Assembly: GCA_942492995.1 (NCBI GenBank)
Contig: OW818653.1
Location: 1,260,001-1,292,000, forward strand
DNA length: 32,000 nucleotides
Direction: 5' to 3'
Source of the DNA: an uncultured Erysipelotrichaceae bacterium
Lineage (GTDB): Bacteria > Bacillota_I > Bacilli_A > Erysipelotrichales > Erysipelotrichaceae
The notes under the pieces were generated by a model, which saw nothing but the letters and a program-made list of their open reading frames with translations, had not been told where the DNA came from and did not search any database. The position numbers were made by a program, and so were the translations under genes. The first letter of the stretch is position 1. The number at the start of each line of letters is the position of its first letter. Below, one piece after another: positions 8,987 to 27,696 of the stretch.

Positions 8987-9001
8987 AGTTTCTCCTCTAT
9001 T

Positions 9002-9017
9002 GTTAGCTATAGCTAAC
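9002..9017. promoter_or_regulatory. Perfect 16-bp palindrome GTTAGCTATAGCTAAC in the feoA-feoB spacer (DtxR-family operator candidate or RNA hairpin)
   Basis: Read directly from the sequence. It matches 12/16 positions of GTTACCCTTAACTAAC at 9712-9727 (shared GTTAnCnnTAnCTAAC). Confidence 0.4.
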
Positions 9018-9032
9018 TTAACCTACAAAAAA

Positions 9033-9317
9033 TTAAACGATAATCGCTTTCGCTAATTCCGTATCAATACTATATCGAGCATCGTTGATATTAACCACAT
9101 ATGTCGAACTTAATTTTGATATAACCGTTATTGATTGTCCTTCATAACATCCTAATGTAAATAGAAAATCACGCATCGCATGATCATTTGTATGTATCGC
9201 ACGAATAATATGAGTAGTATTCATTTTCACTTTTGTTAAATCATGTCCCATACTATTTTCCGTCTCCACTTCGAATGTTTCATCCATTAATCTATGTCTA
9301 TTTAAAACAATATCCAT
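9033..9317 (-). CDS. feoA: FeoA family protein
   Basis: The C-terminal ~70 aa (IRAIHTNDHAMRDFLFTLGCYEGQSITVISK...NINDARYSIDTELAKAIIV) is FeoA/SH3-like. The start at 9317 abuts the dtxR stop (9319). An internal start (MGHDL) is possible. Confidence 0.8.
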   Translation of the reverse strand: MDIVLNRHRLMDETFEVETENSMGHDLTKVKMNTTHIIRAIHTNDHAMRDFLFTLGCYEGQSITVISKLSSTYVVNINDARYSIDTELAKAIIV

Positions 9318-9318
9318 A

Positions 9319-9696
9319 TTAACTCAATTCTTCTTTATTTAAATATTCTTTTATTGATTCCAATAAAGTGTCCGTAATAACATGTTCCATACGACACGCA
9401 TTCTCTTCCGCATCCTCTGGACTTAAGTTTAGCGATTGTTGCAAATACTCAGTAATAATCAAATGTCTCTCATAGATTTCTTGAGATAATTCTCTACCCT
9501 TGTCCGTTAATGTGACTGGACCATAATCATCTTTATTAATCAATAATCGATTTTTAAGTTGATCCATCGCTTTCGTAACACTTGGTTTAGAAATGCTTAA
9601 TGCCTTAGAAATCTCAGCCACATGTGCATGACCTTGACTTTTTTCTAATAGATAAATCGTTTCCAAATACATTTCTGCTGAATCGTGATATTTCAT
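9319..9696 (-). CDS. DtxR/MntR family metal-dependent transcriptional repressor (no SH3 domain)
   Basis: 125 aa. SAEMYLETIYLL...VAEISKALSISKPSVTKAMDQL is a winged HTH, and ERHLIITEYL...EENACRMEHV is the metal/dimerisation region. Confidence 0.85.
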   Translation of the reverse strand: MKYHDSAEMYLETIYLLEKSQGHAHVAEISKALSISKPSVTKAMDQLKNRLLINKDDYGPVTLTDKGRELSQEIYERHLIITEYLQQSLNLSPEDAEENACRMEHVITDTLLESIKEYLNKEELS

Positions 9697-9711
9697 CGCT
9701 TTTCCTCAAGA

Positions 9712-9727
9712 GTTACCCTTAACTAAC
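9712..9727. promoter_or_regulatory. Candidate DtxR-family operator in the dtxR-feoAB leader
   Basis: GTTACCCTTAACTAAC lies between a putative promoter (minus strand TTGCAT-N16-TATACT, ~9733-9760) and the dtxR ATG at 9696. The outer arms GTTA/TAAC are inverted. Confidence 0.4.
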
Positions 9728-9894
9728 TTTCATAGTATAGTATAAGCGAATCACTCGCAAATGCAAGTTAGAATGTTCACAATTATTTAACTAATTTATT
9801 AAATTTCCTAGATACGATGTGATATTTGTCATATTTTGTGAAAGTTGTAACATTTCGCACAAATAGAAAACATCTACGTTAATAGATGTCTAGG

Positions 9895-11451
9895 TTAAAT
9901 CATTTTTGTCGTCCAGTTTTCTACATTCCATACATCGCTTACGATGTCTTGATAGAATTCTGGTTCATGACATACTAATATGATTGTGCCTTTGTATTCT
10001 TGTAAAGCACGTTTTAATTCATCTTTCGCATCCACATCTAAATGGTTCGTTGGTTCATCTAGTACTAATACATTACTTGGTGTATTAATAATCTTACATA
10101 GACGTACTTTAGCTTGTTCACCACCACTTAATACAGATACTTTTGATTCTAACTGTTGACGTGTTAATCCTACCTTCGCTAAGGCATTACGTACTTCAAG
10201 TTGATTCATACTTGGAAATGCTTTCCAAACATCTTCGATACAACTTAAATTATTGTCTTTTTTAACTTCTTGTTCGAAGTATCCAATGGATAAGAATTCA
10301 CCAGTATGTATATTCCCTTCAAACGGTTGAATGATACCTAAGATACTCTTCAACAGCGTTGATTTACCTAACCCATTTGCGCCGGTTAATGCGATTTTTT
10401 GACCACGTTCAACCAAAAATTTTAATGGTTTCGATAGCGCTGATTCATACCCTATGACTAAATTTTCTGTTTCAACGATCACTCTACCAGCTGTTCGTGC
10501 TTGTTTGATATTAAAGACTGGTTTTGGTTTTTCTGGATTTAATTCAATACGCTCCATCTTATCTAATACTTTTTGACGTGAAGCCGCAATACCACGAGTT
10601 GATACACGTGCTTTATTGCGTTGGACGAAGTCTTCTAATCGTGCAATTTCTGATTTTTGACGTTCATAGCTTGCTTCAAGTGCGTATTTATTCATCTCAT
10701 AGATACGTAAGAAATCATTGTATCCACCAACATATCGAGTTAGTTTTAAGTTCTCAACATGATAGATTAAGTTAACTACTTCATCTAAGAATGGAATATC
10801 ATGTGAAATTAAGATAAAAGCATTCTCATATTCCTGTAGATAACGTTTTAACCATATAATGTGTTCTTCATCTAAATAGTTGGTTGGTTCATCTAATAAT
10901 AGGATATCTGGTTGTTCAAGCAATAGTTTGGTTAATAATACCTTTGTACGTTGACCACCACTTAAATCATCCACATCACGATCTAACCCTATACTTGATA
11001 ATCCAAGTGCAGATGCGACTTCATCGATTTTAATATCGATTTTGTAGTAGTCGTGATGATCTAACATATCTTGTAAAATCCCGATTTTATCTAATATTTT
11101 ATCCATATCAATCTCAGGATCAAGTGCCATTTGATTGTATAGTTCCATAATTTCAGCTTCAACATCAATTAAATATTGGAAAGCTTTTTGTAGATTCTGA
11201 CGAATCGTTGTGCCCTTTTCAAGAACGGTATGTTGATCTAAATATCCAACACGAACTTTTGATGACCACGATACTTTACCTTCATCGGGAGTTAATTTAC
11301 CGGTAAGTACACTGAAAAAAGTTGATTTACCTTCACCATTTGCGCCGATCAAACCAACATGTTCACCTTTTAATAATCTAAATGACACGTCTTCAAAGAT
11401 TCCACGATCTCCAAATCCATGACTTAAGTTTTCAACTGTACAAATACTCAT
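9895..11451 (-). CDS. ABC-F family ATPase (two ABC domains, no membrane domain)
   Basis: Two Walker A motifs (GANGEGKST, GANGLGKST), two signatures (LSGGQRTK, LSGGEQAK) and a charged inter-domain linker. Start moved to ATG 11451 (MSICTVENL), preceded by AGGAGG (11458-11463). Confidence 0.85.
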   Translation of the reverse strand: MSICTVENLSHGFGDRGIFEDVSFRLLKGEHVGLIGANGEGKSTFFSVLTGKLTPDEGKVSWSSKVRVGYLDQHTVLEKGTTIRQNLQKAFQYLIDVEAEIMELYNQMALDPEIDMDKILDKIGILQDMLDHHDYYKIDIKIDEVASALGLSSIGLDRDVDDLSGGQRTKVLLTKLLLEQPDILLLDEPTNYLDEEHIIWLKRYLQEYENAFILISHDIPFLDEVVNLIYHVENLKLTRYVGGYNDFLRIYEMNKYALEASYERQKSEIARLEDFVQRNKARVSTRGIAASRQKVLDKMERIELNPEKPKPVFNIKQARTAGRVIVETENLVIGYESALSKPLKFLVERGQKIALTGANGLGKSTLLKSILGIIQPFEGNIHTGEFLSIGYFEQEVKKDNNLSCIEDVWKAFPSMNQLEVRNALAKVGLTRQQLESKVSVLSGGEQAKVRLCKIINTPSNVLVLDEPTNHLDVDAKDELKRALQEYKGTIILVCHEPEFYQDIVSDVWNVENWTTKMI

Positions 11452-11524
11452 AAAATTCCTCCTACAATAACAATCGCTATCATACACGACTTATGCATTT
11501 GTTTCAAGATTTGTACGCATTTAA

Positions 11525-11557
11525 AAACCAAAGTCTTTTATTATGCGACTTTGGTTT
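11525..11557 (-). terminator. Intrinsic terminator after the duplicated lipoprotein gene
   Basis: Arms AAACCAAAGTC (11525-11535) and GACTTTGGTTT (11547-11557). On the minus strand the hairpin is followed by TTTTTAA. Confidence 0.8.
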
Positions 11558-11563
11558 AAATAA

Positions 11564-12940
11564 TTATTTAATTTTTAATTCAATTGCGATTCGATTATCA
11601 AACGATTTCTTAATAGCGCCAAGAATATCTCCATGACCATCTCTTAAGCTCATCGTTGCGGCAGTTGTCACATCAGCTAACACTGCTTTATCATCATCGG
11701 ATAATGCATTATATTTCGCAATATCTTCATCTTTTGTGGAATCTGCTTTTAAAGGTCTTCCATTTAAGTCTGATGAATACTTCGCAAACCATTCTTCGAT
11801 TTCAGTAACAGTTTTACCAACAAATAATGCTTGGTACTTTTCAATTTGATCTGTCCAAGTACCTGTGTTCATTACATATTCAGAACCACGTTCACGTTTA
11901 GTAGCCCATGTAGCGATTTCGGCAAAGAAATTTTCTTCAGTATCTAATGTCTTACTATCCACAACTTCATCATGATTTTCATCAAAGTTATATCCACCTT
12001 GACCTAAGTAACCACTAAAATGAGGCATTCCAGCACCATCATAATTAGGTGTTGCGACTTCAAGTTGATCGATATACAACGCAACTAGTTTGTCATCTTT
12101 ATCAAATAGTGAATTAACAAATACTTGGTTAAAGCTCCATACTTGAGTTTCAGTATTATCAGCACCTGGTCCTTTACGACCTGTACTAAGAACTGCGAAA
12201 CCTGAAGATGTTGCTTCTTTGATTTCTAATTTAACACGGTTGTCATATGCTTTTTGAATAGCCGCAATGATATCCCCATGACCATCTCTTAAACTCATTG
12301 TCGCAGCAGTTGTAACATCTGCTAACATTTCTTTTTCATCATCTGTTAATGTCGCATATTTTGCGATATCTTCTTCTTTTTCTGATTCAGCTTTTAAAGG
12401 TCTTCCATTTAAATCAGATGCGTATTTTGTGAACCATTCTTCAATCTCAGCGACTGTTTTACCAACAAATAATGTTTGATATTTTTCGATTTGATCTGTC
12501 CAAGTACCAGTGTTCATAACATAAGCATCACCACGTTCGCGTTTTGTTGCCCATCCAGCAATTTCCGCAAAGTAATTTTCTTCTGTATCAACAGTCTTAC
12601 CATCTACTACTTCATCATGATTTTCATCATAATTATATCCACCTTGACCTGGGAAACCACTGAAATGAGGCATACCTGCACCATCATAATTCGGTGTAGC
12701 CACTTCAAGTTGGTCAATATAGATTGAAACTATTTTGCCTTCTCCATCAAATATAACATCCGCAAACACTTGGTTGAAACTCCAAACTTGAGTTTCAGTA
12801 TTGTCTGCACCAGGTCCTTTGCGACCCGTACTTACAACTCCAAATCCTTGATATGCTTCATCTAATTTTGATCCATCGGCACATGCGGTTAAACTACTTA
12901 ACATAAGTAAGCATAATAATAGACTAATTATTTTTTTCAT
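11564..12940 (-). CDS. Lipoprotein built from two tandem ~215-aa repeats (divergent FMN_bind-like modules?), partner of the FTR1 permease
   Basis: Start moved to ATG 12940 (MKKIISLLLCLLMLSSLTAC, lipobox LTAC) with AAAGGGG upstream. The two halves align colinearly (GFGVVSTGRKGPGADNTETQVWSFNQVF... and GFAVLSTGRKGPGADNTETQVWSFNQVF...). Each half ends in LADVTTAATMSLRDGHGDI. Confidence 0.6.
   Translation of the reverse strand: MKKIISLLLCLLMLSSLTACADGSKLDEAYQGFGVVSTGRKGPGADNTETQVWSFNQVFADVIFDGEGKIVSIYIDQLEVATPNYDGAGMPHFSGFPGQGGYNYDENHDEVVDGKTVDTEENYFAEIAGWATKRERGDAYVMNTGTWTDQIEKYQTLFVGKTVAEIEEWFTKYASDLNGRPLKAESEKEEDIAKYATLTDDEKEMLADVTTAATMSLRDGHGDIIAAIQKAYDNRVKLEIKEATSSGFAVLSTGRKGPGADNTETQVWSFNQVFVNSLFDKDDKLVALYIDQLEVATPNYDGAGMPHFSGYLGQGGYNFDENHDEVVDSKTLDTEENFFAEIATWATKRERGSEYVMNTGTWTDQIEKYQALFVGKTVTEIEEWFAKYSSDLNGRPLKADSTKDEDIAKYNALSDDDKAVLADVTTAATMSLRDGHGDILGAIKKSFDNRIAIELKIK
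11567..12847 (-). repeat. Intragenic tandem duplication (unit 1 at 12203-12847, unit 2 at 11567-12202)
   Basis: By-eye protein alignment of the two units shows roughly three quarters or more identical residues over ~212 aa. Long identical DNA runs are also visible. Confidence 0.9.
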
Positions 12941-12967
12941 CCTGTATAAAACCCCTTTCATTATTTA

Positions 12968-12997
12968 ACTATAGGAAGAGTTAAGGATGACTGTCAA
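12968..12997 (-). promoter_or_regulatory. Sigma-A promoter of the lipoprotein gene
   Basis: Minus strand reads TTGACA (12997-12992) - 18 nt - TATAGT (12973-12968). Confidence 0.6.
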
Positions 12998-13107
12998 CGA
13001 ATTACTTGTTAAATGTTTCACATAAAATGTAAATTCATGAAATGTTTGTGATTTTTTTAATTAATATACTATAAAAGTTAAACTATTCACAAGTGATATA
13101 ATAATGG

Positions 13108-13147
13108 GTAAAAAAAGACTCTACACACAATAATTTGGTAAAGTCTT
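13108..13147 (-). terminator. Probable intrinsic terminator after the FTR1 gene
   Basis: AAGACT (13115-13120) pairs with AGTCTT (13142-13147), with extra inner pairs TAC/GTA. On the minus strand it is followed by a T-run (plus-strand A-run 13110-13116). The large loop lowers confidence. Confidence 0.45.
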
Positions 13148-13152
13148 AATTA

Positions 13153-13971
13153 CTATTTCTTAGATACAATCTTACGCCATATTCCAAACATACTTATCGT
13201 ATAAACATATTGTAAAATAAATTGTATCCATTCAGGTCTAGAGTACCAACCCACTGTAACATAGAGTGGTAATCCAATAATACCTTCTTTATGATCTAGT
13301 ACTGTGGATGAGAAATCATATGCTTTAATAAATAGAATATGGTTTTCTGCTATATAACCCAATGACTTTAATGCGGACAAACCTTCATGTACTGCATAGC
13401 CTAATAAGAATCCAGCTTGCAAGATTAAATACGCTAAAGTTATCGTAAACAACAGTTTGAGATTAACATTTATTAATGCATGATAAACTAAATACGCTAA
13501 TACTAGTGAAATAAGAATCCCTGTTAGTATTGATATTAAAGTATACTTTCCGGCAAAGGTAAATATCGCTATTTCTGCACCTTCTCGTACAACCATAATA
13601 AATGCGACACTAAACAAACCGCTTGTAGAAAGATTTTGTTTAACTTTGTCCTCTACATCACCAATCATATTTTGTCCATGTTTCATCATCCAAAAAATAA
13701 ATGTCGTTATAAGCAATAACGCAATTATACTTGCGCCACTTTCCCATATTTTCGCAATCTCATCTGTTTTTTGAATAAGTGTTGAGATGAAAAATAATCC
13801 AGCACCGATTAAAAGTGAAGCGATTATTCCAGCAAATGCGCCATAATATACATTCTTTTTTAAATTAGTCTGTTTAGTATGATTTAAATACTGCAGAATA
13901 ATCACCACAATTAAAAAGGCTTCTAACCCTTCGCGAAAACCCATAATAAGACCAGGTATAAATACATCCAT
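13153..13971 (-). CDS. FTR1/EfeU-family iron permease
   Basis: 272 aa and polytopic. Two REXXE motifs: GFREGLEAFLI and VVREGAEIAIF. Confidence 0.85.
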   Translation of the reverse strand: MDVFIPGLIMGFREGLEAFLIVVIILQYLNHTKQTNLKKNVYYGAFAGIIASLLIGAGLFFISTLIQKTDEIAKIWESGASIIALLLITTFIFWMMKHGQNMIGDVEDKVKQNLSTSGLFSVAFIMVVREGAEIAIFTFAGKYTLISILTGILISLVLAYLVYHALINVNLKLLFTITLAYLILQAGFLLGYAVHEGLSALKSLGYIAENHILFIKAYDFSSTVLDHKEGIIGLPLYVTVGWYSRPEWIQFILQYVYTISMFGIWRKIVSKK

Positions 13972-14164
13972 ATGCTTTCCCTAACACTTTCTAATCGTTG
14001 TGTATTTCAAGAATAGCGTATGTACCTTTTATTTACATTTATTATGCTCATAACCATTAAGAAATAATTAATGAAAATAGTGAAAATTTACATAGACAGA
14101 TGGGTCATAAACACATAAAATTAAAACAATACAAATTTGAAAATTAGAAAAAGTGGAGAGTTTT

Positions 14165-14674
14165 ATGTCAACATTTAAAGTAATTACACCAGAAGAGATT
14201 AAATCAAACCCGTTTCATTTAATTGGCAAAGAATGGATGTTAGTAACAGCTGAAATGGATGGTAAAGTTAACACTATGACAGCTAATTGGGGTGGTGTTG
14301 GCGTAATGTGGAATCTTGATGTTGTGTTTGTGGTTATTCGTCCACAACGCTACACAAAGGAATTTGTCGATCACTCTGATACATTCTCATTAACGTTCTA
14401 TGACCAAAGCTATAAGAAAGATCTCTCTTACTTAGGCAGTACATCTGGTAGAGATGAAGATAAGCTTGCACATACTCATTTAGAATTAGTCTACGATGAT
14501 AAAACACCTTTTTTCAAACAAGCTAAAACGGTTCTAATATGTAAAAAACTTTTCGCACAAGATTATCAAAAAGAGTCTTTTATTGATTTAAGTATTGAAA
14601 AAGAAGTATATGATTCAAATGATTATCATACGTTATACATAGCGGAAATTACGAAAGTACTAGTTTCGGAATAA
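14165..14674 (+). CDS. Flavin reductase-like (FMN-binding split-barrel) domain protein
   Basis: LVTAEMDGKVNTMTANWGGVG is typical of the flavin_reduct family. Start moved to ATG 14165, with GTGGAGAG (14153-14160) acting as SD rather than as the start. Confidence 0.7.
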   Translation: MSTFKVITPEEIKSNPFHLIGKEWMLVTAEMDGKVNTMTANWGGVGVMWNLDVVFVVIRPQRYTKEFVDHSDTFSLTFYDQSYKKDLSYLGSTSGRDEDKLAHTHLELVYDDKTPFFKQAKTVLICKKLFAQDYQKESFIDLSIEKEVYDSNDYHTLYIAEITKVLVSE

Positions 14675-15109
14675 TCAATCGACAAATACAATCTCATCTC
14701 CTGGTTTTATATTCCCTCCAACTAATACCCGAGCGAAGATTCCTTCTCTTGGCATAATACAATCACCGACTAAATTCCTAATTTCACACCCAACGTGACA
14801 TTCTTTTCCTATTTGTGTCACTTCAAGTAATACATCACTTACTTTGAACTTTGTCCCAATTGGTAGATGGTGTAAATCAACGCCAATGGTTGTTAGGTTT
14901 TCTGCAAACTTCCCTGGAACTAAACCACTAACCCCTTTGTTTGTCATTTTATCGATACTCTCTTGAGCTAATAAACTAACCATTCGATGCCATGGACCTG
15001 AATGTGCATCACCAACCATCCCTAATTCTGTTTCAAACTTTCCTTCAGGAATTGGATTTTTGATTACACCTTTCGTTTCACTTATATTCACTGATACAAC
15101 TTTTGCCAT
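14675..15109 (-). CDS. Small MOSC domain protein
   Basis: MAKVVSVNISETKG...VTQIGKECHVGCEIRNLVGDCIMPREGIFARV matches the stand-alone MOSC pattern with a conserved Cys. Start moved to ATG 15109, preceded by AAGGAGAAG. Confidence 0.7.
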   Translation of the reverse strand: MAKVVSVNISETKGVIKNPIPEGKFETELGMVGDAHSGPWHRMVSLLAQESIDKMTNKGVSGLVPGKFAENLTTIGVDLHHLPIGTKFKVSDVLLEVTQIGKECHVGCEIRNLVGDCIMPREGIFARVLVGGNIKPGDEIVFVD

Positions 15110-15126
15110 AGTCTTCTCCTTTTCAT

Positions 15127-15705
15127 TTACCATGTCTTTTCAATCTCAATCGTTTGATTCGATACACAATATTGAACACCTGTTTTAAATGGTTTTTCTC
15201 CATTTCCATGTGTTATAAGCAATACCGTTTTATTTTTATCTAATAATTCTTTTTGAATAAGTTCATAAGCAATATTCTTTGCGTATTCATCCATATATGA
15301 AGTAGGTTCATCTAGTAAGTAGATATCTGTATCACTACAAAGCGTTCGTATCAGCGCAATCTTTTGGCGTTCACCTCCAGATAATTTCGATATTGGTACA
15401 TCGCTGTCATAGTCTAAATTAAACATATCTAACCATTCCATTACTTGATTTGTTTGGCTTAAATTATTCCTTATTTTTGGACTGAATAGATGAAAATGTT
15501 GAGGTTGATACGTCCATGTACCATTGATTGTAATATCACCTTGATATGAATTTAACCAACCGATCATACTTCTAAATAAGCTTGTTTTACCACACCCATT
15601 TTCGCCTTTTATTAAATGTAATTTACCTGATTCAAAAGTTAAATCATTAATGTAAAGTAAGGTTCTATCATTGAATAATAGTTTGAAATTAGTACATTGG
15701 ATCAT
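15127..15705 (-). CDS. tupC: ABC transporter ATP-binding protein, tungstate-uptake type
   Basis: Walker A GENGCGKTS, signature LSGGERQKIAL, Walker B IYLLDEPTS. Short (192 aa). Overlaps the permease gene by 17 nt. Assignment rests on operon context with TupA. Confidence 0.7.
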   Translation of the reverse strand: MIQCTNFKLLFNDRTLLYINDLTFESGKLHLIKGENGCGKTSLFRSMIGWLNSYQGDITINGTWTYQPQHFHLFSPKIRNNLSQTNQVMEWLDMFNLDYDSDVPISKLSGGERQKIALIRTLCSDTDIYLLDEPTSYMDEYAKNIAYELIQKELLDKNKTVLLITHGNGEKPFKTGVQYCVSNQTIEIEKTW

Positions 15706-16342
15706 GACTTACCTCTTTAAACACACTGTGTACTAAGTAATTTATCCCAAAGCTAATTATCAACAAACATATCCCAAGAATAAGTGCCGTTTGATAGTTC
15801 CCTTGATTTGTTTCTAATACAATAGCGGTTGTCATAACTCTCGTCTTAAAACGTATATTTCCACCTACCATCATTACAGCCCCAACCTCTGCCATTGCTC
15901 TACCAAAACCAATTAAGATTGATGCTAATATTCCATATTTCAACTCTTTAATGAGATAAACCATTTGTTTATAGTTGGATATATGTAAGCCATAACAGGT
16001 TTCTAGAAAACTTGATTTAATCGGAAGTACTAATGGATATACACTTGCGATGATAAGCGGGAGTACAATTAATATTTGCGCAATTATGATTGCGGTATGC
16101 GTATAGAGTAATTTTAATGAACCAAGTGGACCTGAATTGGATAATAGTAAAAATATCGTAATACCTGCTAATACAGGTGGAAGTCCTGCTAAACTCGATA
16201 TAAATGGACGTATTCTTAATACGCTCTTTTTAGTACTTTTACCAAGTAACAATCCTAACGGTACCCCAAAGAATGCCGCAATTGTGGTAGAGGTTAAGCA
16301 TATTAAAATTGAATTTACGATTATCTGAATAATTTCACTCAT
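15689..16342 (-). CDS. tupB: ABC transporter permease, tungstate-uptake type
   Basis: 217 aa and about 5-6 TM segments. Sits between the binding-protein and ATPase genes. Confidence 0.7.
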   Translation of the reverse strand: MSEIIQIIVNSILICLTSTTIAAFFGVPLGLLLGKSTKKSVLRIRPFISSLAGLPPVLAGITIFLLLSNSGPLGSLKLLYTHTAIIIAQILIVLPLIIASVYPLVLPIKSSFLETCYGLHISNYKQMVYLIKELKYGILASILIGFGRAMAEVGAVMMVGGNIRFKTRVMTTAIVLETNQGNYQTALILGICLLIISFGINYLVHSVFKEVSHDPMY

Positions 16343-16344
16343 GT

Positions 16345-17169
16345 TTATTCTGTAAAAAACAATGCTTGTTTATATGCTTCCTTTCCGAATTCACTAATCA
16401 AACCTAATGCTTTTTCACTTAACATCCATTCTTCAAACTTAAGTGCAGTTTCACTATCCACATTTTCAACTTTTTCAGGGTTAATTACGATGATTGAATA
16501 ATCATTCCGTAAATCTGGACTTTCACTCACAATTACATCTAAATCTAATTTATCTTGCATAGAAAGGAATGTGGCTAAATCAGTTAATGTGTAAGCTTGT
16601 TTCTCATTCGCCATGATTAATGTATTTCCCATTCCACTTCCACTTGATACATAGAAACTCGTATCGAGAGATAGTTCATCATAAATTAAATTAGTTGATT
16701 TCCAAATATTCTTTTCTTTACTATGTGTACCAGAATTATCACCTCGCGATACAAATAATGATTTAGTTTCATAAATCTTGAGAAATGCGTCTTTAGCGCT
16801 TAAATTTATGATTGTTGCTGGATCCGTGTTTGGACCTACGATCGCAAAGAAATTGTACATAAAGGTACTACGTTTTAATCCATATCCATCTTGTACAAAC
16901 GTATCTTCTGCGGCAGGTGAATGTACGAGCAATACATCCGCATCCCCTCTTTGTCCTGCTTCGATTGCGGCACCAGATCCAAGTGATACTACTTCAAGAT
17001 TGATATTCAAATCTTCTAGAATGTAAGGTCTTAAATATTCTATTAGTCCACTATCATTTACTGACGTAGTCGTTGTTAATCTCAGATTTGTCGGTTCTTC
17101 TTTTACAATTGTTTGAGTTGAGCATGCGGATAATAGTAATACGAGTAATAAACAAAAGATACGTTTCAT
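16345..17169 (-). CDS. tupA: Tungstate-binding lipoprotein TupA
   Basis: MKRIFCLLLVLLLSAC lipobox. LRLTTTTSVNDSGL (TupA TTTS signature) and SRGDNSGTH oxyanion-binding motifs. Start moved to ATG 17169. Confidence 0.75.
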   Translation of the reverse strand: MKRIFCLLLVLLLSACSTQTIVKEEPTNLRLTTTTSVNDSGLIEYLRPYILEDLNINLEVVSLGSGAAIEAGQRGDADVLLVHSPAAEDTFVQDGYGLKRSTFMYNFFAIVGPNTDPATIINLSAKDAFLKIYETKSLFVSRGDNSGTHSKEKNIWKSTNLIYDELSLDTSFYVSSGSGMGNTLIMANEKQAYTLTDLATFLSMQDKLDLDVIVSESPDLRNDYSIIVINPEKVENVDSETALKFEEWMLSEKALGLISEFGKEAYKQALFFTE

Positions 17170-17173
17170 TTTT

Positions 17174-17668
17174 TTAGTCCTTTCTGGCACATTCTTGTGC
17201 AGACCCAATTAATATATCTAACCCATGTTTTAATGGTTCGATAATATATAACAATGATTCTTCAACTGCTTTCGGACTTCCTGGTAATGTAATAATCAAT
17301 GTTTCATTACGAATACCAGATATTGCACGCGATAACATCGCCTTCTTAGTAATGGTCATACTATAGGCACGAATCGCCTCTGAAATCCCAGGTGTATTTT
17401 TATCTAATAAGGGTTGAAGAGCTTCAGGTGTAACATCCCTTACTGCGAATCCAGTACCACCAGAAATTAGCAATAAATCTACCTTTAATTCATCTGAACA
17501 ATGCTTAATCTCTCTTTGGAGATGTTCAACTTCATCTGGAACGATGACAGTATACTCAAGTTTAAACGGTTGATTAAACATACACTTTTCTATCGTTGGT
17601 ATTCCTCCGTCAACTCTTAAGTTTTGCGAACCTTTATCCGAAGAAATTATTATGGCATATCGATACAT
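17174..17668 (-). CDS. moaB: MoaB/MogA-family molybdopterin adenylyltransferase-like protein
   Basis: LLISGGTGFAVRDVTPEA and TLPGSPKAV motifs. Start moved to ATG 17668 (MYRYAIII), preceded by GGGAGG. Confidence 0.8.
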   Translation of the reverse strand: MYRYAIIISSDKGSQNLRVDGGIPTIEKCMFNQPFKLEYTVIVPDEVEHLQREIKHCSDELKVDLLLISGGTGFAVRDVTPEALQPLLDKNTPGISEAIRAYSMTITKKAMLSRAISGIRNETLIITLPGSPKAVEESLLYIIEPLKHGLDILIGSAQECARKD

Positions 17669-18093
17669 TTTATGACCTCCCATTGATCATTTGATTTAAC
17701 TATTCCTGAACTCAAACATTTTAGATAGATTGTATTTATTCTTAATGGACAATTTTCATGATTCCGCAAGTAGTTACACCCATCACTGATGTGACATCGT
17801 TTACCTATTTTAATTATTTTAAGTAATACGTCATTCTTTCGTATTGTATCCCCTACAGATAATCGAATATTCTGAGAATTATCATAGATAATATTCGCAT
17901 AGAAACTCTTCATGCATAATGCGTTATCTTGATTCATCTGATTATATGTATCCATATCAAGCATTAATATTTGATCATCATTATGATAATCTTCCAATAT
18001 ACCTGATTCTGTAAGTGTTAAACTCTCTCGATTAGATACATTATCTTTATTAATCCCAACATATAGAGCATGAATTCTAAATATTTCTGACAT
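17650..18093 (-). CDS. Divergent MOSC-like small protein (paralog of 14675-15109)
   Basis: IIKIGKRCHISDGCNYLRNHENCPLRINTIYLKC aligns with QIGKECHVGCEIRNLVGDCIMPREGIFARV of the other MOSC protein. The start is 18093 or 18114; both overlap the moaC 3' end. Confidence 0.5.
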   Translation of the reverse strand: MSEIFRIHALYVGINKDNVSNRESLTLTESGILEDYHNDDQILMLDMDTYNQMNQDNALCMKSFYANIIYDNSQNIRLSVGDTIRKNDVLLKIIKIGKRCHISDGCNYLRNHENCPLRINTIYLKCLSSGIVKSNDQWEVIKCIDMP

Positions 18094-18553
18094 AATGTCC
18101 AGATTTCCCACCAATCTTTTCGATTAAATAGATATCCGTTATATGCATCGAAGGATCCATTGATTTTGCCATATCATAGATTGTGAGCGCACAAATGCTT
18201 GCGCCTGTTAGAGCTTCCATTTCTACCCCTGTCTTCCCTTCACACGTTACTTTACAAACTACTCTTATCGAGAAATTTGTATCATCAGAATGAAAAAGAA
18301 TATTAATGCCTGTTAATAAAAGTGGATGGGCCATTGGGATTAATTCAGCTGTCTTCTTAACTGCTTGTATCCCACCAACTTGCGCAACAGATAGAACATC
18401 ACCTTTTTTCATTTGTTTGTTCATAATCGCATTATAGGTAATTTCGTTCATATGAATTACAGCTTGTGCACTCGCGGTTCTTGAAGTAACAGTCTTTTGT
18501 GTCACATCTACCATCTGACCATGCCCCTGTTCATTTATGTGTGTAAGTTTCAT
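18077..18553 (-). CDS. moaC: Cyclic pyranopterin monophosphate synthase MoaC
   Basis: 158 aa. GKTGVEMEALTGASICALTIYDMAKS is the MoaC signature. Confidence 0.9.
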   Translation of the reverse strand: MKLTHINEQGHGQMVDVTQKTVTSRTASAQAVIHMNEITYNAIMNKQMKKGDVLSVAQVGGIQAVKKTAELIPMAHPLLLTGINILFHSDDTNFSIRVVCKVTCEGKTGVEMEALTGASICALTIYDMAKSMDPSMHITDIYLIEKIGGKSGHYVRNI

Positions 18554-19513
18554 TTATCCTCCTATTTGACTCATTTGACGAACAATCATTTGATGTTCAT
18601 CGAGTAAATGTTTTTCTGGTTTAACTTGGTAAGCTTCAAGAATTAAAGGTAATATGTCTAAATTAGCTCGTAATGGAGTTTTTAAATCAATTTCAAGATC
18701 ACTGTGTAAACATGGTTTTAATTTACCATCTGGAGTTAATCTCAATCGATTACAATATGCACAGAAATTACATGACAATGGAGAGATTAGACCTACCTTG
18801 CCTCTTGCGCCATCTAATCGATAGTATCGAGCAGGAGATGAAGGATCATCTGATTTTACTGACTTTAGTTCAGGATGATGACTTATGATTAGTTCATTTG
18901 AATAAAAGTGCTTTTTAGCATATGCGACATTACTACCAATCGGCATTAGTTCAATGAAACGCACATCAACGCCCCAATCCTTTGTGAGTTGAATAAAATC
19001 AGTTATTTCATCATCATTGATTCCTCGATTAACGACACAATTTAACTTAACTTTAAGTCCTACATTTAATGCACTGTGTATTCCTTCCAACACATTACGT
19101 AATTGTCCACCACGGCTCATTAATTTATATCGGTCATGATTTAATGTGTCCAAACTGATATTTACACGATGTAACCCAGCTTCTTTTAATGGTTTTGCGA
19201 GCAATTTAAGAAGCACTCCATTGGTAGTCATTGCGATATCATCAAGTTGTTTTAGTTGAGCAACTTTTCGAACAAACTCAACCACATCTTTACGCACTAA
19301 AGGTTCTCCACCTGTAATACGTAATTTCTTTACACCTAAACCAACAAATTTTTCAATTACTGTATATAACTCTTCAAAACTTAGTATTTCTTCGTGTGGC
19401 ATCGATTCTACACCTTCTTCAGGCATACAATAGGTACAACGCAGATTACATCGATCTGTAATTGATACTCTCAGGTACGTTAAATCACGATTAAAACGAT
19501 CAAGCATATTCAA
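18554..19513 (-). CDS. moaA: GTP 3',8-cyclase MoaA (radical SAM)
   Basis: LRVSITDRCNLRCTYCMPEE (CxxxCxxC) and the C-terminal cluster CNFCAYCNRLRLTPDGKLKPCL. Confidence 0.95.
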   Translation of the reverse strand: MNMLDRFNRDLTYLRVSITDRCNLRCTYCMPEEGVESMPHEEILSFEELYTVIEKFVGLGVKKLRITGGEPLVRKDVVEFVRKVAQLKQLDDIAMTTNGVLLKLLAKPLKEAGLHRVNISLDTLNHDRYKLMSRGGQLRNVLEGIHSALNVGLKVKLNCVVNRGINDDEITDFIQLTKDWGVDVRFIELMPIGSNVAYAKKHFYSNELIISHHPELKSVKSDDPSSPARYYRLDGARGKVGLISPLSCNFCAYCNRLRLTPDGKLKPCLHSDLEIDLKTPLRANLDILPLILEAYQVKPEKHLLDEHQMIVRQMSQIGG

Positions 19514-21410
19514 TTACCTCCCCGCAGTTATGTGTATCATAACCACCTAATTCAAAACACTTATCTCTGAACTCATTTGATTTTAAACACTCTAAAAATA
19601 ACTTCATCATGTCAGTTTCAAGAAGTCCTTTACGACATACAAAATCATAGTCCTCTTCACCTAATGGAATAAAATCGCATCCCATTACGTTTGCGGCAGA
19701 ATAAACACCTAATCCACAATCTACTACACCATTTTGTACAGCCGCAGCGACTGCTAAATGTGTATTTAATTCTTTATCATATCCATTAATACTATTTGGA
19801 TTTATATTCTTTTTAGTTAGCCAATAATCAAGTAGAACGCGTGTTCCGGCACCGCGTTGTCGATTCACAAATCGATGATACACTAAATCTTCTATCGTAC
19901 ATATATTTAGTGGATTATCTTTTTTAACAATCAAACCCTGAATTCGTTTAACCCCTTTTATTAACACCATTTCTTCATCTTTGAATAGTTGTTTAATAGT
20001 ATCAATATTATAGGTTCCACTTTGATCAAGTAAGTGTGTCATTGCGATATGTGATTCTTTTCGTTTAAGTGCTAATAATCCAGCATAAGAACCTACATGT
20101 ACACTTGATATATGATAGTGCACATTATTTCTTTCTATCTGTTCTAATTGATTATTTAATACATCCATTACAAGATCATGTGATCCTATTGCCATCAGTG
20201 TATTTTGAATGGTTTGTATCGGTTTATTTAACCAAACCTCAATTCTTTCATTCGATTCTATGCCTTCACTATTCTTATCAATCATTGCGTATCCATCGCT
20301 CTTTACAACAGACATCATCATACCTGCACCACGAGCAAGCGGAGTTGCGATATATTTTCCATCTATATACCCAAGTTTTACACGGATGTATTCTTTACTC
20401 TTTAAACTTGATACGATTCTACGTGTACTTATCGCTTGAATAATCGATGTTTGTTTAACTGGATAATGATTTAATTTCAATAATAATGGTGTAACAAACT
20501 CTTCAAATACGATATGAGCACTAACAGGATAACCAGGAATTCCAATAACCGGTACATTTCCAATTCTGCCTAATATCGCAGGTTTACCTGGTTTTATGGA
20601 TAATCCATGGATGAATACTTCACCTAATTCTTTGATTACAGATGCGGTATAATCTTCTCTTCCCGCTGATGAACCTGCATTAATTAGTACTACGTCATAG
20701 TGTTCAGCCGCAGATTTTACCGCATTTAATAACTCATCATATACATCAGGAATAATCTTTAACGTTGTTGGGATTGAGAATGCTTCTTGTGCCAATCCCA
20801 TAAATAAATACGAATTAGATTCCACAATATCCCCAATATTTACTGAATCATACGCAGACCGTATTTCCGTTCCAGTTGGAATAATCGCTACACTAACTTG
20901 TTTATACACTTCAATATGGAGTTGATTAGCAGCCATAAGAACACTAATATCCATTGGACGTAACACATGTTCCATCGGAAATAAAAGTTCACCTTCTACA
21001 ATATCTTCACCAATTGGTCGCACATTTTCCCACGGGACAACTGATTTAATAATCTGTATCCCATTATCTGTTTCTATGCAATCTTCAACCATAATAACCG
21101 CATCATACGGATCAAGAATAGGATCACCCGTATCTACTTCGATATAGTCATTTACATTAATTAACAGTGGTCTATGTTCATTCGCATCAAATGTTACTCT
21201 CGAATTAATTGCGATTCCATCCATCGCTGAACTTGGATAAAATGGCACACTTCGTTTAGCATAAATTGGTTGCGAAAGTACACGATTTAGAGCGTTTCTA
21301 CTTTCCACAATTTCAATTTTGCGATCCAAATAAATATCTTCTAAGACTTGATTATAGTTTGCCTTAGCTATTTCTAAATCTGTAGACTTAAGATAAAAAG
21401 ATCGTTTCAT
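19500..21410 (-). CDS. moeA: MoeA (metal insertase) fused to a C-terminal periplasmic-binding-protein-like domain
   Basis: 636 aa. The N-terminal ~400 aa is MoeA-like (SAMDGIAI, IPTGTE, INAGSSAGREDY, GIPGYPVSAHIVF). The C-terminal ~230 aa (IGSHDL...NRQRGAGTRVLLD...CGLGV) resembles a type-2 PBP oxyanion-binding fold. Confidence 0.75.
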   Translation of the reverse strand: MKRSFYLKSTDLEIAKANYNQVLEDIYLDRKIEIVESRNALNRVLSQPIYAKRSVPFYPSSAMDGIAINSRVTFDANEHRPLLINVNDYIEVDTGDPILDPYDAVIMVEDCIETDNGIQIIKSVVPWENVRPIGEDIVEGELLFPMEHVLRPMDISVLMAANQLHIEVYKQVSVAIIPTGTEIRSAYDSVNIGDIVESNSYLFMGLAQEAFSIPTTLKIIPDVYDELLNAVKSAAEHYDVVLINAGSSAGREDYTASVIKELGEVFIHGLSIKPGKPAILGRIGNVPVIGIPGYPVSAHIVFEEFVTPLLLKLNHYPVKQTSIIQAISTRRIVSSLKSKEYIRVKLGYIDGKYIATPLARGAGMMMSVVKSDGYAMIDKNSEGIESNERIEVWLNKPIQTIQNTLMAIGSHDLVMDVLNNQLEQIERNNVHYHISSVHVGSYAGLLALKRKESHIAMTHLLDQSGTYNIDTIKQLFKDEEMVLIKGVKRIQGLIVKKDNPLNICTIEDLVYHRFVNRQRGAGTRVLLDYWLTKKNINPNSINGYDKELNTHLAVAAAVQNGVVDCGLGVYSAANVMGCDFIPLGEEDYDFVCRKGLLETDMMKLFLECLKSNEFRDKCFELGGYDTHNCGEVIEYA

Positions 21411-21425
21411 ACAATTCCCCCTTAA

Positions 21426-22649
21426 CTAAATTAATATGACATTTACTAATTCATCCTTTTTATATCCTTCTAAATTACCCGGTACGAAAAGATATGCGTT
21501 AGCCGACAATAATGTAGAAATTAAACCACTCTTTGTGTATACAATACGTGCTCTAGTACAATTATTTTCTTGGTAAACGGTTAAGAAGATAATCGTTTCT
21601 TTACCTTGAGATGAAATTACATTTGTGTCTATTTTTGCGAATATTGAGTTCGTGTTCTGTTCAAATACTTGTTGGAATGATGTTTTGAAAACTCTCTGGA
21701 ATATCGCAAATGCACTCACTGGATGACCAGGTAAACCGATAAGAAGACACTTACCAATAGAGCCTAAAATAGTTGGTTTCCCAGGCTTAACAGCTAAACC
21801 ATGCGACCACACAACATTTTTCCCTAACGATTCAAATATCTTAACCGTGTAATCTTTTTCACCTTGTGAACTCCCGCCACTTACAAATATCACATCAACT
21901 TCTTTACTTAAACGATTAATTGCTTTATTTAGTTGATCAAAATCATCTTGGATTAATAACGTAGAATGTACATTAATGTTTAATTCATTTAATTGAACAG
22001 TTAAAAGAGTTCCATTAATATCATGAACTTGACCTTTTTTTATGGATTGATTTATTGGAAACACTTCATCACCGGTAGAAATGATTGCGGCGTTTAATTT
22101 CGCATAAACTTCTACAGTATCAATTCCAACACCAGCACAAACACCAATAGCTTGAGTAGTTAGACGCTTACCCTTCTCAACAATTACCTGTTTGTAATTT
22201 ATATCTTCACCTGTTCGAATAACATTTTCATTACTCGCAATCGATTTATAAATAAGCACATCATTCGTATTGAATAATTCTGTATACTCAATCATTACAA
22301 CTGCGTCTGCACCTTCTGGCAACATTCCACCAGTTGGCACATATGCACATTCACCAGCATTAATTGTAATAAGTGCTTCTTGTCCCATCGCAATCTTATC
22401 AACACACTTCAGAATTGTTGGCAGTGATTCAGATGCGCCTTGTGTCTCTTTTGAGTGTACTGCATACCCATCTACAGTAGATCGTGTAAAGTTAGGAAGC
22501 ACTTCTGGACTGTATATCGGGGTTGAGACAATACGATTAAGTGCTTGTTCAATACAAATAATCTCGGTTTTACCAAGATGATATTTCTTTAAATGATTTT
22601 TACAATTCACTATAGCATTTTCGACAGTATCAACTTTTAATAGAGCCAT
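21426..22649 (-). CDS. moeA: Molybdopterin molybdenum/tungsten-transferase MoeA (stand-alone)
   Basis: 407 aa. STVDGYAV, VPTGGMLPEGADAVV, VSGGSSQGEKDY and GLPGHPVSAFAIF. Confidence 0.9.
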   Translation of the reverse strand: MALLKVDTVENAIVNCKNHLKKYHLGKTEIICIEQALNRIVSTPIYSPEVLPNFTRSTVDGYAVHSKETQGASESLPTILKCVDKIAMGQEALITINAGECAYVPTGGMLPEGADAVVMIEYTELFNTNDVLIYKSIASNENVIRTGEDINYKQVIVEKGKRLTTQAIGVCAGVGIDTVEVYAKLNAAIISTGDEVFPINQSIKKGQVHDINGTLLTVQLNELNINVHSTLLIQDDFDQLNKAINRLSKEVDVIFVSGGSSQGEKDYTVKIFESLGKNVVWSHGLAVKPGKPTILGSIGKCLLIGLPGHPVSAFAIFQRVFKTSFQQVFEQNTNSIFAKIDTNVISSQGKETIIFLTVYQENNCTRARIVYTKSGLISTLLSANAYLFVPGNLEGYKKDELVNVILI

Positions 22650-22711
22650 TTCAAATCAATTTTATGGTCATAAAAAAACACCAACACCTTTAAATCTAGT
22701 ATAGCACATTG

Positions 22712-22728
22712 AAATGTAAGCGCTTTAT
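22712..22728. promoter_or_regulatory. cre-like operator copy 1 (AAATGTAAGCGCTTTAT) in the divergent moeA / radical-SAM promoter region
   Basis: 17-mer identical to 23862-23878. The core ATGTAAGCGCTTTAT matches 9 of the 10 specified positions of the cre consensus WTGNAANCGNWNNCW. An extended -10 (TGcTATACT, minus strand, ~22697-22705) for the moeA operon lies just beside it. Confidence 0.5.
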
Positions 22729-22780
22729 TAAAAATGTGAAATATCTTGAGTCGATTAATGTTTTGCCCTATAGTAAGATT

Positions 22781-23848
22781 ATGATGAATTTACATATCAA
22801 TGATGATGTCCCAATAAATAAGATTTATCTAGAACTTACACAACGCTGTAATCTTCAATGTAAGAACTGTTTTAGACAGAATTGGACATTACCAGAAACA
22901 CAAATGTCGCAAGAGATTTTTGACAATATACGAAATAGTTTAAACGATATCCCAAGTTTAAAAGAGATTGTGTTAGGTGGAATTGGTGAACCTACGATAC
23001 ATCCTAAATTTGTGGAATGGGTTAAATTACTACCTAATGTTGAACTTAGTGTTACGACTAACGCCTATTATTGGAAAGACGAAACGATTCAATTACTAGC
23101 AGAACGATTTAACCGCATTGTAATTTCTGTCGATGGTTTAGAATCAACATTCTACAAAATACGTAGCTTTGAACTTTCTTTACTTGAACAAAATGTAAAA
23201 CGATTAATCCATATTCGTACATCACTTGGAAAGTATGAACCATTCTTAATTACACAAATTGTATTAAGTACAGACAATGTCGATGAGATTGAAGAACTAA
23301 TCCCAATACTCGCAAAGATGGGATTTATGAAGATTATTATATCTAACTTGTTACCTCAAAACGAGTTAGATAAAGATAAAATACTATACACTTTACATGA
23401 AAATCCAAGAATGACAAAACTTCGTACAACTTGGTTAAATAAAGCTTTATCCAATCAGATTCAAATAAAATTTCCAGCAATACAACTTAAAACAGAAAGA
23501 CGTTGTAACTTCGTACATGATGGAACGCTAACCATAAACAGTGATGGTAATATTGCGCCGTGTTATCGATTTGCACATCCATCCATCGAATATGCATTTG
23601 GTAGACGTAAACAAGTTTATCCTTTCCATTATGGTAATGTCCTTAATCAATCAATTAACGAGATTTGGTTTACACGTTTATATACCGATCTACGCCTGCA
23701 AAACATTCGCAATCGTTTCCCATCATGCCCAGATTGTGATCGGGTGGATTGTTGCGACTACATCAATGACTCACTTTGTGATTGTAGAGGACAGAATCCC
23801 TCATGTGCTGATTGTTTATGGACAAGAGATTTCATTCAATGCATATAA
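22781..23848 (+). CDS. Radical SAM/SPASM-domain maturase associated with tungsten-cofactor oxidoreductases
   Basis: LELTQRCNLQCKNC (CxxxCxxC) and GGIGEPT. The Cys-rich C-terminal SPASM-like region reads CYRF...CPDCDRVDCCDY...CDCRGQNPSCADC. It lies immediately upstream of aor. Start placed at ATG 22781 (MMNLHIN). The SD is weak, so the start is uncertain. Confidence 0.7.
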   Translation: MMNLHINDDVPINKIYLELTQRCNLQCKNCFRQNWTLPETQMSQEIFDNIRNSLNDIPSLKEIVLGGIGEPTIHPKFVEWVKLLPNVELSVTTNAYYWKDETIQLLAERFNRIVISVDGLESTFYKIRSFELSLLEQNVKRLIHIRTSLGKYEPFLITQIVLSTDNVDEIEELIPILAKMGFMKIIISNLLPQNELDKDKILYTLHENPRMTKLRTTWLNKALSNQIQIKFPAIQLKTERRCNFVHDGTLTINSDGNIAPCYRFAHPSIEYAFGRRKQVYPFHYGNVLNQSINEIWFTRLYTDLRLQNIRNRFPSCPDCDRVDCCDYINDSLCDCRGQNPSCADCLWTRDFIQCI

Positions 23849-23852
23849 GACC

Positions 23853-23881
23853 TTTACTTTAAAATGTAAGCGCTTTATAAT
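23853..23881 (+). promoter_or_regulatory. Sigma-A promoter of aor overlapped by cre-like operator copy 2 (23862-23878)
   Basis: TTTACT (23853-23858) - 17 nt - TATAAT (23876-23881). The 17-mer AAATGTAAGCGCTTTAT fills the spacer and runs into the -10. Confidence 0.6.
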
Positions 23882-23887
23882 TAAGTT

Positions 23888-24012
23888 AAGTTCCGAGTTA
23901 TTCACCTCAAAAGGCAAAATAACCGATGGGTTTTATTGGAAACGATAAAGCCTCCCACTCCTTGGAAAGGGACTGCATTTTTAAAATGCGGCCCTGTACA
24001 CCAACACATAAT
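23888..24012 (+). promoter_or_regulatory. Candidate Moco/Tuco (molybdenum/tungsten cofactor) riboswitch aptamer in the aor leader
   Basis: The ~170-nt leader contains blocks I recognise from the Moco RNA motif: CCGAG (23893-23897), AAAGCCTCC (23947-23955) and GGAAAGGG (23964-23971). Local hairpins: GTTATT/AATAAC (23897-23923), CCGAT/ATTGG (23923-23939), TCCC/GGGA (23953-23972). I could not run a covariance model. Confidence 0.55.
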
Positions 24013-24037
24013 ACAAGGGTCGCCCCTTGTTTTTTTA
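24013..24037 (+). terminator. Intrinsic terminator acting as the leader's expression platform, 20 nt before the aor SD
   Basis: CAAGGG (24014-24019) - TCGC - CCCTTG (24024-24029) followed by TTTTTTT. SD AAAGGAGGA at 24047-24055 and ATG at 24058. Confidence 0.75.
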
Positions 24038-24057
24038 TGTTTGACAAAGGAGGAAAT

Positions 24058-27094: not shown

Positions 27095-27664
27095 TTAGAA
27101 TTTTATTGGTTCAAGTTTTAATGGTGTAGTAATACATGTATCACTTTCACTAAAGGTAGAGATAGGATATTCAACAGTCAAACCATCATAATCGACTTTT
27201 AATGTAGCTTTAATTCCTTTTGGCAACCATATTCCAATAAACCCATTATCCTGAGTAGTACGCTCTTCATCAATAATAATCTGATTGTTTTCATCGACAA
27301 TTCTAACTCTCATGGTTTGATTGAATATTTCACCACGACATGAAACTAAATTATGAATGGTACATGGGTGTACTTCATTAATATATGGTGCGATAGACAC
27401 AAAGAAAGAATCCGTAGGCAAGTCTAGACTATATTCCTTTTCATTATCATATAGAAATAGTTTATCTCCTGTAATTCGTGCCCCAACATGTGTAGGTTCA
27501 TCAATTCTTTGATCAAGATTATTCACTACTTCTTTAATTTCTGTATTTTCTAAATCAAGTTGTTTTAATACTTTGTTTACACCACTTGGTAACGAAAGAA
27601 ACCAAACTGATACGCTTATAAATACAATTCCTAAAATAATGATTAACCCAAGTTTATTTTTCAT
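27095..27664 (-). CDS. cueP: CueP-family metal (copper)-binding protein with an N-terminal membrane anchor
   Basis: 189 aa. FFVSIAPYINEVHPCTIHNLVSCRGE ... DNGFIGIWLPKG ... SDTCITTPL follows the pattern I recall for CueP (APY..xH.C..H.L..CRGE, NGFIG.WLP, D.TCIT). Confidence 0.7.
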   Translation of the reverse strand: MKNKLGLIIILGIVFISVSVWFLSLPSGVNKVLKQLDLENTEIKEVVNNLDQRIDEPTHVGARITGDKLFLYDNEKEYSLDLPTDSFFVSIAPYINEVHPCTIHNLVSCRGEIFNQTMRVRIVDENNQIIIDEERTTQDNGFIGIWLPKGIKATLKVDYDGLTVEYPISTFSESDTCITTPLKLEPIKF

Positions 27665-27696
27665 TGTTCAACCCTCATTTATAGTTTAAAGGTTGG

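Follow-up and report, generated by a model that had tools for sequence, protein, structure and literature searches.

A lipoprotein with two enlarged FMN_bind-like units, encoded next to an FTR1 permease gene in an uncultured Erysipelotrichaceae bacterium

We analysed a 32,000-nucleotide (nt) stretch of genomic DNA from an uncultured Erysipelotrichaceae bacterium (contig OW818653.1, positions 1,260,001 to 1,292,000; hereafter the window), in which a gene for a lipoprotein of 458 amino acid residues (aa) lies beside a gene for an FTR1/EfeU-family permease. The lipoprotein is probably an extracellular electron-transfer module, built of two enlarged domains derived from the flavin mononucleotide (FMN)-carrying FMN_bind domain (PF04205) and likely to hold two covalent flavins. 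Multi-flavinylated proteins have already been described; what appears to be new here is an enlarged, uncatalogued variant of the FMN_bind-type domain.

Architecture of the lipoprotein

The open reading frame (ORF) of the lipoprotein (11564-12961, minus strand, 465 aa) is real and has the same orientation as the FTR1 gene. It reaches an upstream ATG at 12961, but the start codon is likely the second ATG, at 12940, giving a coding sequence of 458 aa (11564..12940), because the first ATG lies ~7 nt past the -10 element of the best promoter-like site, too close for a ribosome-binding site to fit in between, and because in the ortholog of locus L058 a well-spaced AAAGGGG stands ahead of the second ATG. 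The product begins with a predicted signal peptide and lipobox (12881..12940, minus strand; MKKIISLLLCLLMLSSLTAC), with Cys20 as the putative lipidation site. In the translation its L-T-A-C, judged by eye, satisfies the lipobox pattern [LVI][ASTVI][GAS]C, which would place the protein outside the membrane.

After a short linker come two colinear units of ~212 aa, unit 1 (12203..12847) and unit 2 (11567..12202), both on the minus strand. They align without gaps, with 167 of 210 residues identical (80%; E = 5e-134), so the initial annotation was right to describe the protein as two colinear, highly similar units. At the DNA level the units are also 80% identical, and at third codon positions 63%. 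The exact window lipoprotein was not found in the contig collection searched. In a set of 133 two-unit homologs plus the window protein, the two units of one protein are on average 81% identical, against ~70-75% for orthologous units of different species; unit 1 sequences resemble one another slightly more than they resemble unit 2 sequences. These two trends together suggest an old duplication with partial gene conversion.

No Pfam, NCBIfam or PDB-sequence match was obtained with the full window protein. Tox-PLDMTX, sulfatase and uL13, which came up when the full protein or a profile of 51 units was compared with these three databases, were dismissed as noise. When the 51 units, which share <66% identity, were scanned singly at E <= 10, PF04205 was weakly detected in 13 of them (best E = 0.0012) and every other family in at most three. 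For profile-profile comparison with hhalign, an FMN_bind profile was made from 40 canonical domains of the same homologs and the window's own FMN_bind domain. The whole unit matched this profile with P = 2e-4 (probability 45%), with aDvtS.ATMSL..HGdil.Ai.kA of the unit opposite VD.VsGAT.T....S.aI..AV..A. With residues 59-159 excised, the alignment covered 78 of the 90 FMN_bind columns (probability 89%, P = 2e-6, score 36.8), and FMN_bind fell on unit residues 20-58 and 160-215. This alignment takes in the β-strands, an E-x-T-P element and the motif-plus-helix, and pairs FD..GkI....vDqLEvaTPN with v...d.kI..v.v...ET.gig. Control comparisons with 150 column shuffles had a mean score of 10.5 (standard deviation 1.8, maximum 19.1) and the reversed alignment scored 11.7, which puts the observed score ~15 standard deviations above the shuffles.

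A further line of evidence comes from the relative P0166, which has two ~175-aa units with EAISGAT and reaches 25.1 bits to PF04205, where the gathering cut-off is 22 bits. It is 40% identical to the window unit over residues 24-154 and bridges the window unit family and canonical FMN_bind. Homology of the unit core to FMN_bind is well supported, the support coming from sequence profiles and not from fold.

In the AlphaFold2 model of the single unit (predicted local distance difference test, pLDDT, 94), strands occupy residues 2-14, 20-33 and 39-50 and are followed by a loop region (51-88). Helices lie between 89, where the first starts, and 181; the motif falls at 177-183, and the last helix spans 193-202. 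In the model of the mature two-unit protein (pLDDT 93; predicted template modelling score, pTM, 0.91) the strands extend further than those modelled for one unit. This model indicates that the two units are held in a fixed arrangement, as a predicted single rigid body. The insertion of ~100 aa that separates the FMN_bind-derived parts of each unit has nearly invariant residues of its own (T101, K102, R103, G106, Y109 and W116); speculatively, the T-K-R, G, Y and W of this subdomain may shape a flavin pocket or a substrate site. A stretch of the insertion, D-E-N-H-D-E-V-V-D (12617-12643 in unit 1, 11972-11998 in unit 2), looks by eye like a calcium-binding loop; it reads DADGDGTVEG in relatives and is deleted in the shorter family members.

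The order of elements, namely a three-strand meander, an E-T-P element, D-x-x-[ST]-x-A-T and a helix, is common to the window unit and canonical FMN_bind domains (PF04205; NqrC, RnfG, PplA and Clostridium perfringens 3O6U). Like these, the window protein is predicted to be extracytoplasmic, and to the profile-profile similarity is added the fusion of most homologs with such domains. In contrast to them, the window unit has ~110 extra residues, no Pfam match, no Foldseek match, Ala for Gly in the motif and a 4-residue insertion that separates the motif from the final helix (the L-x-D-x-H-G region).

The closest known kind of domain appears to be FMN-bind2. A compact FMN-bind1 (~120 aa) has been distinguished from the rarer FMN-bind2 (~160 aa), which has insertions between β1 and β2 and between β3 and α1, occurs in even copy numbers and is predicted to form a pseudo-symmetric two-flavin pairing (Huang et al. 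2024, mSystems, PMC11334425). FMN-bind2 was identified by BLAST, is found in Firmicutes and is tabulated without an InterPro identifier; one example, NTW96865.1, is from an Erysipelotrichaceae bacterium (PMC11334425). The window unit resembles FMN-bind2 in its FMN_bind-derived core, in insertions between β1 and β2 and between β3 and the first helix, in its two tandem copies and in the apparent rigid pairing of these copies (model pTM 0.91), as well as in occurring in Firmicutes and lacking an InterPro signature. Unlike FMN-bind2, it is ~212 aa rather than ~160 aa long, thus ~50 aa larger, has an additional helical subdomain and has TAAT where FMN-bind2 has [S/T]GA[S/T]. We regard the window unit as an enlarged variant, likened to FMN-bind2 by the published description and not a proven member, whereas the relatives with ~175-aa units (P0166) may be of the described FMN-bind2 type.

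Candidate flavin sites and the homolog family

Each unit of the window protein contains DVTTAAT as a candidate flavinylation motif, at 12299..12319 in unit 1 (with the Thr at 12299-12301) and at 11654..11674 in unit 2, both on the minus strand. The canonical ApbE motif is D-x-x-[S/T]-G-A-[S/T] (PMC12052999); DVTTAAT keeps the D, the [S/T], the A and the T of this motif and has Ala in place of Gly. The motif position is conserved in the family as D-x-x-[ST]-[GSTA]-A-[TS], and over 292 units the heptad is D-[VAL]-x-[ST]-[GSTA..]-A-[TS]. In the 51-unit alignment no stretch is better conserved than the motif region, where at least 90% of the sequences agree at each of D177, A182, T183, S185 and L186. 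Gly occupies the fifth position in 24 of the 52 units of a representative set (DALSGAT, DVVSGAT, DAISGAT); many family members have Ala, Ser, Thr, Lys or Arg there. An ApbE-like motif with Ala for Gly at the end of each unit, as initially annotated, was thus confirmed, and divergent relatives have D-x-x-S-G-A-T at the equal position. In the fumarate reductase of Klebsiella pneumoniae, the Gly-to-Ala change is summarised in a review as leaving ~50% flavinylation (Bertsova 2019, reviewed in PMC12052999).

A search of 5.8 billion proteins returned ~1055 homologs of the lipoprotein. Of the best 120, the majority measure 550-800 aa and have one to three genuine PF04205 domains N-terminal to the equivalent of the unit pair; homologs of 794 aa begin with an RnfG-like membrane anchor, and up to five flavin sites are predicted in relatives (three FMN_bind domains and two units). 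A minority of the best 120, with 454-465 aa, consists of the unit pair alone, like the window protein. An exhaustive search of 1.84 billion representatives yielded only 161 clusters (50% identity), which include one-unit, two-unit and LysM-bearing proteins. The family is found mainly in Clostridia (Tissierella, Gudongella, Sedimentibacter, Proteiniclasticum, Youngiibacter, Gemmiger and Christensenella) and is also present in Holdemania and Fusobacterium.

Several unusual architectures were seen among the relatives. Some of the proteins P0185, P0194, P0203, P0225 and P0145 join LysM and one unit, and relatives of the LysM type have a second motif-like string (DATTGAS, DATSGAS, DAVSAAT) straight after the signal peptide; in P0225 the halves of the unit stand in swapped order, that is, as a circular permutation. 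P0259-P0266 are lipoproteins of ~300-350 aa with two ~150-aa repeats and no Pfam match, which share with the unit only the helical segment TKR..GD.Y.M..G.W and have D-S-A-L-S-S-S-C-T at the place of the motif. They may represent a further sister family.

According to the reading that we favour, the window lipoprotein of this low-GC Firmicute is anchored by its lipid to the outer side of the membrane. Each ~212-aa unit keeps the three-strand β-meander and the C-terminal motif-plus-helix of FMN_bind, with ~10 residues inserted between β1 and β2 and ~100 residues (loops and the helical subdomain) between β3 and the motif. An ApbE-type flavin transferase would put FMN on the last Thr of each DVTTAAT. 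With FMN on each unit, the protein would be a two-flavin electron-transfer module that belongs among the multi-flavinylated extracytoplasmic proteins, closest to the 'FMN-bind2' pairs. In most relatives, electrons would pass from the membrane through the fused canonical FMN_bind domain(s) to the unit pair; the window protein, having no fused FMN_bind domain, would need a separate electron donor. Reduction of extracellular ferric iron or of other oxidants is a plausible output, gene position being the sole pointer to iron. Multi-flavinylated extracytoplasmic proteins have been described previously (Meheust et al. 2021, PMC8238504), among them SaFMN3 and CbFMN4 (PMC10339131). Like these, members of the lipoprotein family are predicted to be secreted or anchored and to have several ApbE sites, and the presumed role of both is that of an electron relay. 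SaFMN3 and CbFMN4 are strings of canonical FMN_bind domains, whereas in the relatives of the window protein the two C-terminal domains are enlarged and the window protein has only those.

Several results weigh against this reading. The usual Gly is missing from the motif of the window protein (TAAT), and we found no report in the literature of a flavin on any family member. Neither the window protein nor unit 1 has a PF04205 match, even at E <= 10, and the best hhalign result needed the insertion to be excised by hand, with an excision chosen by the analyst. In Foldseek, to which the initial annotation had looked for similarity to FMN_bind, neither the single-unit nor the full-length model had a PDB match at E <= 0.001 (the best E values were 0.34 and 0.05), and no FMN_bind structure was among the best 50 matches listed for either. 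Finally, apbE was found neither in the window nor among the 138 genes that immediately flank homologs. Of the layout initially proposed, an FMN_bind core with a large insertion and the motif, what stood was carried by hhalign, the SGAT relatives and the FMN_bind fusions; the structural match to the PDB did not materialise. SSB, IscU, LptE and MHC class I, which appear in the Foldseek results, were rejected as chance partial β-sheet matches.

The Foldseek outcome, the 45% probability of the full-unit hhalign comparison and the shortness of the motif would all fit a convergent or chance resemblance, in which an unrelated fold happens to contain a short D-x-x-T-x-A-T string. We consider this extremely improbable, given that the excised alignment over the strands, the E-x-T-P element and the motif-plus-helix exceeds the column shuffles by so wide a distance, that intermediate relatives exceed the Pfam cut-off, and that SGAT occurs at the homologous site together with a consistent fusion to FMN_bind.

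Another explanation accepts the descent from FMN_bind and supposes that the units are degenerate, flavin-free where the motif Gly is replaced, and have a non-redox function, for instance binding of a ligand or metal by the insertion, or a scaffold role in the cell wall. The motif D, A and T/S are kept in at least 90% of the units even where Gly is absent, their persistent fusion to canonical FMN_bind domains speaks for a redox function common to both, and ApbE, by the review's account, accepts the Gly-to-Ala change in one substrate that was tested (PMC12052999). For these reasons we find degeneration rather unlikely, although it would agree with the Ala, Ser, Thr, Lys or Arg at the Gly position in many members, with the insertion and its own nearly invariant residues, including the calcium-loop-like DENHDEVVD (by eye), with the LysM domains of some relatives and with the lack of a flavoprotein fold match.

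Covalently flavinylated proteins are emerging as the flavin counterpart of multihaem cytochromes in extracellular electron transfer, mostly in Gram-positive bacteria. Because the present family is invisible to Pfam, NCBIfam and PDB, surveys based on PF04205 miss its sites and would undercount the flavins per protein, for example by finding three instead of the predicted five in the 794-aa relatives. Inventories of flavinylated proteins would gain from a domain model of the enlarged unit. The family also poses the question of whether ApbE accepts SAAT, SSAT and TAAT in nature.

The FTR1 neighbour

The gene upstream of the lipoprotein gene (13153..13971, minus strand) encodes an FTR1/EfeU-family permease of 272 aa, which scores 124 bits to PF03239 and 131 bits to the NCBIfam EfeU model, the latter under the model cut-off. 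Its two REXXE motifs, REGLE and REGAE, are visible in the translation, in agreement with the initial annotation, as is the absence of EfeO, EfeB, P19, a multicopper oxidase and ApbE from among the window ORFs scanned. FTR1-type permeases generally act with an extracytoplasmic redox partner (Fet3/Ftr1, EfeUOB, FtrABCD). This general dependence is one of the points in favour of the view that the lipoprotein is a dedicated redox or iron partner of FTR1, a flavin-based ferric reductase or an electron sink that would replace P19, EfeO or a multicopper oxidase. The lipoprotein itself gave no Pfam, NCBIfam, PDB-sequence or Foldseek match that would make it P19/FtrA, EfeO, EfeB or a multicopper oxidase.

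The same view draws on the adjacency and shared orientation of the two genes and on their iron-rich surroundings. In the immediate clade the genes follow one another as Flavin_Reduct (divergent), FTR1, lipoprotein, ABC-F, DtxR-type repressor, FeoA and FeoB, and the order of the window is kept in L052 and L053 (lipoprotein 96% identical) and in L058 (lipoprotein 94%, FTR1 88% identical). In L059, where FTR1 is 74% identical, Flavin_Reduct, an intact FTR1 gene and ABC-F are kept, but the lipoprotein gene has decayed between the last two: the remnant (L059:5842-6138; tblastn 42% over 127 aa) holds a 59-aa ORF for the C-terminal end of unit 2, which ends ...EDVTTAATMSLKDSHGDILGTIKKSFDNVVAIELKVK. 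This remnant implies that the adjacency predates these species; the same locus counts against partnership, in that FTR1 and the flavin reductase gene have outlived the lipoprotein there. No lipoprotein-type neighbour accompanies the FTR1 homologs that are 69% and 61% identical.

Beyond the close relatives, synteny of the family with FTR1 was not seen in the loci searched. No FTR1 gene was found near a homolog by phmmer in L001-L003 and 47 species-level loci with flanks of up to 10 kb. In a Pfam census of the 138 genes within two positions of a homolog, no family occurred in more than five, and FTR1, P19 and ApbE were not recurrent; when all flanking ORFs were clustered in search of a conserved neighbour, only generic ABC ATPases recurred. 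The 454-aa forms P0003, P0006 and P0009, which share the architecture of the window protein, and the Tissierella gene P0093 likewise have no FTR1 nearby.

Transcription signals also argue against a dedicated partnership. A promoter-like site, TTGACA-18-TATAGT (12968..12997, minus strand), precedes the lipoprotein gene; it is a consensus match only, the best in 9000-14700 with 11 of 12 positions, and is conserved in L058. Terminator-like hairpins on the minus strand follow directly after the FTR1 stop (13110..13147, with U7; -13.5 kcal/mol, z = -3.8) and directly after the lipoprotein stop (11523..11556, with U5; -14.3 kcal/mol, z = -3.95). Because of the hairpin after FTR1 and of the promoter-like site and hairpin belonging to the lipoprotein gene, the two genes are probably separate transcription units and not an operon. 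A shared operator upstream of FTR1, the lipoprotein gene and dtxR-feoAB was looked for; only AT-rich 16-mers with three mismatches turned up, which were not judged significant. One such pair consists of similar elements with [GT]AACATT[TC] on the minus strand upstream of the lipoprotein gene (12941-13152; TTGTGAATAGTTTAAC) and of dtxR-feoAB (9697-9894; TTGTGAACATTCTAAC).

Gene clusters that combine P19, FTR1 and FMN_bind provide a precedent for partnership: 260 P19/FTR1 clusters with an FMN_bind gene have been described in Gram-positive bacteria (Meheust et al. 2021, PMC8238504). As in these, the window FTR1 gene adjoins a gene for a putatively extracytoplasmic, FMN_bind-related protein. Unlike them, the window has no P19, only one narrow clade shows the adjacency, transcription of the two genes is apparently separate, and the lipoprotein gene is lost in a relative (L059) that keeps FTR1.

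Taken with the restricted synteny and the decay in L059, these differences leave the proposal that the lipoprotein is a dedicated partner of FTR1 unlikely, and the iron-handling role given to it by the initial annotation was not borne out by the synteny check that this annotation had itself proposed. The adjacency is old inside one narrow lineage, neither general nor indispensable; the FTR1 permease is a neighbour whose functional partnership with the lipoprotein is not supported, and the link is at most a lineage-specific, dispensable association. We regard as decidedly improbable the bolder idea that the enlarged pair is a distinct, uncatalogued class of ApbE substrates in which the ~100-aa insertion covers each flavin with a site for a substrate or a metal, and which in this lineage would serve as an extracytoplasmic, flavin-based ferric reductase feeding the orphan FTR1. 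If true, a ferric-reductase role would mean an FTR1 system for anaerobes that is independent of P19, EfeO and copper. The lineage-specific placement beside FTR1 offers one concrete candidate for the physiological acceptor, namely iron.

Other flavoprotein genes are found near FTR1. The Flavin_Reduct gene (14153-14674, plus strand) encodes a cytoplasmic protein and is divergent from FTR1; the pairing is kept where FTR1 is 88% (L058) and 74% (L059) identical. In L060 (FTR1 69% identical) FTR1 is followed by a gene for a cytoplasmic, flavodoxin-like Flavodoxin_4 protein, which was rejected as a secreted flavinylation substrate since it has no signal peptide. A cytoplasmic flavoprotein may thus be the conserved companion of the orphan FTR1. 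P0166 lies in a different metal-transporter neighbourhood (L062-L064), adjoining genes for a LysR-type regulator and a ZIP-family metal permease.

Other genes of the window

The gene at 1-1077 (minus strand), of which the window start leaves only the N-terminal part, encodes a lipoprotein with FMN_bind and FAD_binding_2 domains and DTISGAT, which bears out the SGAT motif previously noted for this flavoenzyme; it resembles an extracytoplasmic flavoenzyme of the fumarate reductase type. As this is a canonical flavinylation substrate, ApbE is expected to be encoded in the source genome.

A tungsten/molybdenum block (14675-25857) encompasses genes for a MOSC protein, an ABC transporter with a PBP_like_2 binding protein, MoaA/MoaC/MoaB-type genes, two MoeA genes and genes for a radical SAM/SPASM protein and an aldehyde:ferredoxin oxidoreductase. 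Further along, at 27095-29833 (minus strand), a gene for a CueP-like copper-binding protein stands beside those for a histidine kinase and a response regulator, and the same trio is found upstream of FTR1 in L059.

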